Below are positions 34,542 to 34,602 of a stretch of 64,000 nucleotides of DNA, in pieces. The DNA is from Escherichia phage vB_ECOLIGBLB0003. The notes beneath the pieces were generated by a model that saw only the letters and a program-made list of their open reading frames with translations, was not told the DNA's origin and did not search any database. The DNA lies in sequence record PV654517, one strand, 5' to 3'. The translations under genes were made by a program, and so were the position numbers. Positions within the stretch are counted from its first letter, which is position 1. Each line of letters opens with the position of its first letter.

Positions 34542-34602
34542 TTTGTGTTCCTTATGTTATGTCAGTAAGACTACTGTAACACAACATAAGGAACTTGTAA
34601 AC
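34542..34602 (-). promoter_or_regulatory. Promoter-hairpin cassette A: early-type promoter (GTTTACA-N17-TACAGT) inside a 16-bp hairpin that pairs the downstream SD
   Basis: Minus strand reads GTTTACA AGTTCCTTATGTTGTGT TACAGT...; stem GTTCCTTATGTTGTGT pairs with ACATAACATAAGGAAC, which contains the AAGGA SD; near-identical copy at 49671-49728. Confidence 0.55.

Follow-up and report, generated by a model that had tools for sequence, protein, structure and literature searches.

The alt.-3 and alc loci

The window (the whole stretch of DNA analyzed, 64 kb in length) represents a genome of the T6-like Tequatrovirus type. Two short intergenic cassettes on its minus strand each combine an early-type promoter with a hairpin. 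Site A lies between an Alt-like ADP-ribosyltransferase gene and alt.-3, and site B separates rnlA (gene 63) from alc, which encodes an inhibitor of host transcription (Table 1). Two tandem full-length alt paralogues are present here (685 and 697 aa), with an identity of 41%. The alt.-3 gene ends 5 nt before a bidirectional intrinsic terminator that closes the alt/alt.-3 unit, and upstream of the 697-aa alt gene is a T4 late-promoter consensus from which late read-through RNA could plausibly reach cassette A. At neither site does a terminator separate the cassette from the stop codon that precedes it. In T4, alt.-3 is the locus of escape from CmdTAC defence, through C-terminal extension mutations (PMC11618068).

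Table 1. Positions of the cassette elements and of the neighbouring features in the window
Feature	Position	Strand	Basis or remark
Site A, whole cassette to ATG	34602..34539	minus	
Site A, stop codon TAG of alt paralogue	34604..34602	minus	
Site A, extended -35 GTTTACA	34596..34602	minus	hexamer TTTACA 34601..34596
Site A, 5' arm GTTCCTTATGTTGTGT	34579..34594	minus	folding; within promoter spacer
Site A, TG of extended -10	34581..34580	minus	
Site A, -10 hexamer TACAGT	34573..34578	minus	in loop and apical stem
Site A, apical 5-bp stem CAGTA/TACTG, loop GTCT	34563..34576	minus	folding
Site A, transcription start (A)	~34566	minus	predicted from spacing
Site A, 3' arm ACATAACATAAGGAAC	34547..34562	minus	folding
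Site A, SD AAGGA	34553..34549	minus	within 3' arm
alt.-3, 96 aa	34251..34541	minus	downstream gene of cassette A
Bidirectional intrinsic terminator of the alt/alt.-3 unit	34225..34246	.	terminator scan; convergent with gene 54
Alt-like ADP-ribosyltransferase gene, 685 aa	34602-36659	minus	upstream neighbour of site A
Alt paralogue, 697 aa	36663-38756	minus	
T4 late-promoter consensus TATAAATA	38780..38787	minus	24 nt upstream of alt (697 aa)
Third long-range cassette, GTTTACA-N17-TAGTAT	43502..43561	minus	upstream of gene 30.8
Site B, whole cassette	49728..49668	minus	same frame as site A
Site B, extended -35 GTTTACA	49722..49728	minus	5 nt past rnlA stop codon
Site B, 5' arm AAGTCC-C-TCATGTTGTG	49705..49722	minus	bulged C at 49716; in promoter spacer
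Site B, -10 hexamer TACAGT	49699..49704	minus	
Site B, transcription start	~49692	minus	predicted; in loop
Site B, 3' arm CATAACATGAGGACTT	49672..49688	minus	folding
Site B, SD GAGGA	49679..49675	minus	within 3' arm
alc	49164..49670	minus	T4-annotated start is the second ATG of the window ORF, 49667

Site A reads GTTTACA-AGTTCCTTATGTTGTGT-TACAGT-AGTCTTACTG-ACATAACATAAGGAAC-ACAAA-ATG. The initial annotation had described here, on the minus strand, GTTTACA, a 17-nt spacer and TACAGT with TG at -15/-14, set in a 16-bp hairpin whose 3' arm holds the AAGGA SD of the 96-aa ORF. The promoter sequence was confirmed as described, and the hairpin was recovered by folding. The stop codon of the upstream alt paralogue shares its last base with the first G of GTTTACA, and only 8 nt separate this stop codon from the first paired base. 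The spacer ends in TGT, and the 5' arm within it includes the anti-SD TCCTT and terminates in the TG of the extended -10. Of the 16 bp of the stem (34594..34579 with 34562..34547), 15 are Watson-Crick and one is G.U. The apical stem includes part of the -10, and the predicted transcription start falls in its 3' half.

The annotation had also placed a second, near-identical copy upstream of alc, which holds true. The two copies lie ~15 kb apart and have in common a 54-nt unit, bounded by the -35 and the SD, in which 93% of positions are identical (50/54). A core search that had been proposed genome-wide was run on the 64-kb window and returned the 22-mer core exactly twice, versus 0.00 expected. 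A generic sigma-70 scan was not enriched (63 sites versus 66.7 expected in shuffles) and therefore lends no support to the promoter on its own. The T:A to C:G compensated change reported between the stems is real (CCTTATG/CATAAGG versus CCTCATG/CATGAGG), but it is not their sole difference, as in copy B a C is bulged out and the stem is of 11+6 bp. Taken by itself, a single compensatory change between A and B is anecdotal. Both cassette copies are carried by ~499 GenBank phage genomes. T4 has them at homologous positions, with the -10 TATAGT and the stem CCTCGTG/CATGAGG; the site A -10 is TATAAT in some relatives.

Predicted masking of the SD in read-through RNA

Folding of both transcript forms, as the initial annotation had suggested, predicts the hairpin only in read-through RNA; RNAs started in the loop have z of ~+1. 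Cassettes A and B each fold at -26.9 kcal/mol, with z of -5.58 for A and -4.54 for B, and none of 200 dinucleotide shuffles was as stable as either. We measured masking as the free energy to make positions -14 to +4 around the AUG single-stranded. In modelled RNA started upstream the SD and AUG are paired and opening costs 16.5-19.1 kcal/mol, and in each cassette's own transcript, with its predicted start in the loop, the cost is 1.7-3.4 kcal/mol.

These values are the highest in the window. Across 68 putative genes the read-through opening energy has a median of 5.4 and a 95th percentile of 13.9 kcal/mol; alc ranks first (19.1) and alt.-3 second (16.5). I-TevI (start 58270) served as positive control and ranks fourth (14.5 kcal/mol). 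Its initiation region (58250-58320, minus strand) lies in the known SD-masking hairpin of this gene, AAAUACUUCU / AGAGGUAUUU, whose 5' arm holds a near-consensus late promoter, AATAAATA. The third rank (16.0 kcal/mol) belongs to a 136-aa gene, denA-sized, at whose AUG a strong intrinsic-terminator-like hairpin ends (51319-51360, minus strand; GUGGGCCGCAAGGCCCAUUUUAUU); its SD lies 5' of the stem.

We propose that at both sites a sigma-70-type T-even early promoter is nested in a hairpin whose formation is restricted to read-through transcripts. The -35/-10 spacer with its anti-SD would be the 5' arm, the -10 and the start site would lie in the loop, and the 5' UTR with the SD would form the 3' arm. 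RNA started upstream (late alt mRNA at site A, rnlA-containing transcripts at site B) would have both arms, fold, and hide the SD and AUG. RNA from the cassette's own promoter would start in the loop, lack the 5' arm and be freely translated. With only the latter RNA open, synthesis of Alc and Alt.-3 would be tied to the brief firing of the early promoter. The initial annotation had already suggested that translation would be coupled to promoter choice in this way; each sequence feature on which that suggestion relied stands up, and the comparison with other lineages adds weight to it.

Conservation of the cassette at alc

First scans of IMG/VR, with the core pattern and with the Alc and Alt.-3 proteins, returned only 4-5 close relatives. 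The comparison at alc covers rnlA-alc spacers from 10 diverged GenBank lineages and 24 metagenome loci. Nearly all lineages examined keep the promoter frame, GTTTACA (or GTGTACA), 16-17 nt, TGn and TAnnnT, at 61-64 nt from the ATG. In most of the other lineages sampled, the spacer pairs with the SD region through unrelated stem sequences: TCTCCATTTGGTT / AACCAAATGGAGA in Karamvirus, TCCCCATTTT / AAAATGGGGA in L056, TCCTCGTCAG / CTGATGAGGA in Jiaodavirus, TCTCCTCAT / ATGAGGAGA in Dhakavirus, TCTCCTCAG / CTGAGGAGA in L044, TTTCTCCA / TGGAGAAA in L042, and CCTCGTTTGTT / AACAAACGAGG in Biddle and L058. All 22 non-redundant cassettes (~10 lineages) fold with z between -3.5 and -7.3.

RNAalifold predicted no structure from a sequence-anchored alignment of 21 sequences, because the anti-SD moves along the spacer relative to a fixed SD: the pairing register drifts by up to ~5 nt among lineages (pair-position sums 60-65). 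We replaced it with an arm-swap test, a same-register sub-alignment and a covariance model, whose alignment was too approximate in Tequatrovirus for pair counting. Matched halves fold at a mean of -19.9 kcal/mol versus -10.7 for swapped halves, and none of 20,000 permutations reached the mean of the matched halves. In seven of nine lineages the matched partner ranks first in both directions of the swap. In the sub-alignment of Jiaodavirus and Biddle, 83% of cells are paired versus 28-50% when the partner is slid, in three pairs both partners have changed, and covariation scores 0.292 versus 0.141 (0/500 shuffles). Together, the pair counts, covariation and arm swaps show that the two arms co-evolve.

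Masking at alc follows the same pattern in modelled RNAs. Read-through RNA needs 14-17 kcal/mol to open, and the own transcript 1-3, in Tequatrovirus, Karamvirus, L056, Jiaodavirus and L044; the corresponding values are 8-14 and 0.7-4.5 in Dhakavirus, L042 and Biddle, and 13.6 and 2.3 in Aeromonas phage 44RR2.8t. The 3' arm covers the SD in nine of the ten hairpin-bearing lineages, in differing registers. In 44RR2.8t, a very distant relative (L031 347-409), the alc SD is masked by a 5' arm between the -10 and +1; the same masking logic is reached there with another geometry, the 5' arm lying outside the spacer. Mosigvirus and Tegunavirus keep the alc promoter with the SD unmasked (ddG 0.8 and 1.6), and the gate is therefore dispensable.

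A leader motif, CTTACAC(A/T)AAC, follows the -10 at about +1 to +10 in many cassettes, loci and genera (for example 43525-43516 in the window) and is probably part of the T-even early promoter and initial-transcribed consensus. In several lineages the CACA of this motif pairs with TGTG just upstream of the -10, which gives an apical stem.

The pairing could also act in DNA, as a cruciform, a single-strand hairpin or a protein-binding palindrome, with an effect on promoter melting or on recombination. Pairing is possible on both strands in several genera, the antisense fold being as stable as the sense fold or more so in L056, L058, Dhakavirus and Marfavirus; a sense-RNA structure is favoured only in Tequatrovirus and the picture is mixed in other genera. 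The position of the -10 in the loop fits such an action, as does the proposal that the PeSLs (promoter-early stem-loops) of T4-like phages are recombination sites. Action in DNA nevertheless seems extremely improbable to us. Complementarity alone is conserved and the arm sequences are not, which makes a sequence-specific protein site unlikely, and loops of 16-22 nt, as found here, disfavour cruciform extrusion. The polymorphic stem positions of Tequatrovirus are mostly G.U in the sense strand, hence A.C on the other, so that the sense fold there is 4-13 kcal/mol more stable.

Variation within Tequatrovirus

The stem pair flagged in the initial annotation occurs in three states: C:G in all B copies and in T4-type A copies, U:A in the A copy of the window, and U.G. 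The U.G intermediate, CCTTATG/CATGAGG, is present in another Tequatrovirus (the A copy of L009/L018), and a second stem pair alternates between A:U and G.U within the genus. The most divergent A copies have unchanged arms and an altered loop, with the consensus -10 TATAAT in three of four sampled. Most Tequatrovirus A copies have a B-type 5' arm (GTCCC) and tolerate one C.A mismatch, which suggests exchange between copies A and B. Strict concerted evolution was rejected, as -10 and stem states are not always common to both copies within a genome; in L006 the -10 is TACAGT in the B copy and TATAGT in the A copy.

Cassette types and the origin of site A

Three cassette types recur: a mini-hairpin internal to the spacer, a hairpin straddling the -10, and the long-range hairpin from spacer to SD. 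Members of the long-range type are found at alc, at alt.-3 and at gene 30.8 (43560), where the stem TTCCTTTGT/ACAAAGGAG covers the SD. A covariance model built from alc cassettes finds 7/7 minus-strand early promoters of T4 type in the window.

The mini-hairpin has 4-5 bp and lies wholly in the -35/-10 spacer (L025, L032-L034, L036, L053-L057). Dhaka-, Mosig-, Marfa- and Karamvirus have it at alt.-3, and Mosigvirus has it at alc as well. At the alt-to-alt.-3 junction of these four genera the promoter is kept and the spacer forms a mini-hairpin, such as CACCA-AGGA-TGGTG, which overlaps the TG of the extended -10, without the spacer-to-SD stem. In Kanagawavirus the alt.-3 spacer folds stably (-24.1 kcal/mol, z -4.6) into a different geometry. 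Only Tequatrovirus thus has the long hairpin at alt.-3. Given this restriction and the 93% identity from -35 to SD, cassette A is most simply read as a derived duplicate of the alc cassette, which is the old and widespread version.

The -10-straddling type, GGTAGGA...TCCTACC or a variant of it, occurs in the window at 46734, 60370 and 43168, in Mosigvirus ndd.1 and in Tegunavirus alc. Hairpins of this family do not reach the SD (43102-43169, 46674-46735 and 60309-60371 of the window, minus strand; also L061, L066 and L027), and they are probably the 'AGNA-loop-TCNT' PeSLs described for PST/T4. The alc locus bears different cassette types in different genera.

Relation to PeSLs, hairpin gates and terminators

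PeSLs are the family closest to both cassettes (Arbiol et al. 2010, PMC2839356; Comeau et al. 2014, PMC4122927). In the two papers, early promoters are accompanied by a stem-loop that sits in the -35/-10 interval or overlaps the -10; the cassettes lie near indels, and the stem-loops are read as terminators or attenuators. Neither paper mentions translation or ribosomes. The likeness extends to an intergenic cassette made of a stop codon, a sigma-70-like early promoter, an SD, an ATG and a stem-loop; to the T4/PST consensus TTTACW-N17-TAYWAT, which matches the promoters of both cassettes; and to the presence of several near-identical copies per genome, beside indels and apparently exchanged between loci. 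Sites A and B have GTTTACA-N17-TGn-TACAGT in the stretch from the alt or rnlA stop codon to the SD/ATG, the copies are 93% identical, the cassette type varies by genus and a T4 deletion junction is nearby. The stem sits differently. The stem-loops of published PeSLs are compact, end before the transcription start and fall into five positional subclasses, whereas here the stem spans the predicted start and its 3' arm, downstream of the predicted +1, covers the SD. With the 5' arm in the spacer and the -10 in the loop, both cassettes partly resemble the 'overlapping -10' class.

The stem-loops at sites A and B could thus be generic PeSLs, serving as attenuators, terminators or protective 3'-end hairpins and as recombination substrates, with the SD included incidentally. 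The published interpretation and the vicinity of indels favour this reading, as do the -10-straddling hairpins at the window promoters 30.7, 46734 and 60370, which miss the SD. Neighbouring early-promoter hairpins that straddle the -10 in this way must have at least one other role. Further points in its favour are the change of cassette type at one locus between genera, the T4 alt.-1/alt.-2 deletion, which ends 11 nt from cassette A, and the start of the hairpin 8-13 nt past the upstream stop codon. Like a Rho-independent terminator, the cassettes present a stable hairpin immediately after a stop codon. They differ from one in having a loop of 16-22 nt (or an interrupted stem) and a stem of only moderate GC content, unlike the short GC-rich stems of terminators, and no lineage has a U-tract after the stem; the cassette is therefore unlike an intrinsic terminator. 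The scan for intrinsic terminators calls neither cassette (post-stem sequences ACAAAAUG and UAUGAUGG), and we rejected that assignment. We regard the generic reading as unlikely. The masking energies, highest in the window at these two cassettes, speak against it, and the SD is covered at alc despite varied registers and 5' arms, 44RR2.8t included, which indicates selection on SD masking itself.

An assignment to an Rfam 15 family was also rejected, the cassette giving only sub-threshold, hairpin-like matches. At the gathering threshold Rfam 15 had no match in the whole 64 kb, despite the I-TevI-bearing td intron region; the ORF insertion presumably breaks the group I intron model.

The logic that we propose for the cassettes resembles that of T4 e (lysozyme), soc, 49 and I-TevI, whose RBS-sequestering hairpins contain an internal late promoter (PMC3014915). 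Long transcripts of these genes fold and hide the SD/AUG; RNA from the internal promoter lacks the 5' arm and is translated. There, the gp55 late promoter TATAAATA delays expression, whereas cassettes A and B, from which this promoter is absent, have a sigma-70 early promoter. An early gate of this kind would mirror the 'late-only' gate of those four genes. Neither alc nor alt.-3 is listed in the 2010 review of T4 hairpin gates (PMC3014915). The cassettes are best seen as a PeSL cassette combined with the logic of a hairpin with an internal promoter, here an early one; this combination is what is new.

Expression timing and upstream translation in T4

Time-resolved omics of T4 assign both RNA and protein of alc and alt.-3 to the early class (PMC9697503). 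The same data put alt in the late class, and rnlA in the early class as RNA and the late class as protein; alt.-1/-2 belong to the middle class as RNA, and their proteins were not detected (PMC9697503). These temporal classes fit a functional early promoter at both cassettes together with later read-through RNA. We found no published 5'-end map for sites A and B, or genome-wide for T4, in the literature, and the DksA paper does not mention alc or alt.-3.

The alt region of T4 is rearranged relative to the window. T4 alt.-1/alt.-2 correspond to the N-terminal part of the second alt paralogue fused to its last codons. Direct repeats of 9 nt (CTAAAAAGT, minus strand) occur at 36312-36320 and 34613-34621, and a ~1.7-kb deletion between them would produce the T4 arrangement, with its junction 11 nt upstream of cassette A. 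The T4 alt.-2 ORF crosses the -35 and the entire 5' arm of cassette A (L001 4566-4600, corresponding to T4 123065-123099), and its stop codon is the TAG within the -10 box TATAGT. A ribosome translating alt.-2 would therefore unwind the hairpin.

The hairpin could also be a translational-coupling device, keeping the downstream SD closed in read-through mRNA until a ribosome that ends at the adjacent stop codon upstream opens the foot of the stem; the output of Alt.-3 or Alc would then be proportional to translation of the upstream gene. At site A the anti-SD is in the basal pairs, within reach of a ribosome at the stop codon 8 nt before the first pair, and in T4 the alt.-2 ORF reads the whole 5' arm and stops in the -10 box. 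At site B and in several genera, however, the anti-SD is 13-21 nt past the stop codon, at or beyond ribosome reach. T4 proteomics lacks Alt.-1 and Alt.-2, and finds Alt.-3 early while alt is late (PMC9697503). Coupling would also leave the constant nesting of the promoter in the loop unexplained, and as an account of the cassettes it appears distinctly improbable.

Discussion

We identify two near-identical promoter-hairpin cassettes upstream of alt.-3 and alc, and conclude that they are a real, conserved regulatory element. Our preferred reading is that they act as an 'early-only' translational gate, to which we assign a probability of roughly 60%. The presence of read-through RNA, its folding in vivo and the effect of this fold on translation are inferred.

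On a wider and more tentative view, for which we would put the chances at somewhat below even, the cassette may be a portable 'immediate-early-only' module of the PeSL kind, in which a strong early promoter is joined to a lock that silences the translation of all other transcripts. Such a module would be conserved at alc across Straboviridae, have been copied by recombination to alt.-3 in Tequatrovirus, and have a related version at 30.8. It could be one way in which T-even phages end the synthesis of selected early proteins despite middle and late read-through RNA.

The design is compact and well defined, at 54 nt. Because the loop holds the -10, promoter and stem can be changed independently of each other; the idea is therefore easily tested and the cassette could be reused as a synthetic part. 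The cassettes do not overturn the current view of T4 regulation. They suggest that PeSL-type cassettes can carry post-transcriptional logic besides a promoter and move between genes as a unit. If the early-only gate holds, it would offer a simple cis-acting reason why certain early proteins of T-even phages are restricted to the opening minutes of infection despite continued middle and late transcription from upstream, the proteins concerned being Alc, the host-transcription terminator, Alt.-3, encoded at the CmdTAC escape locus, and gp30.8.
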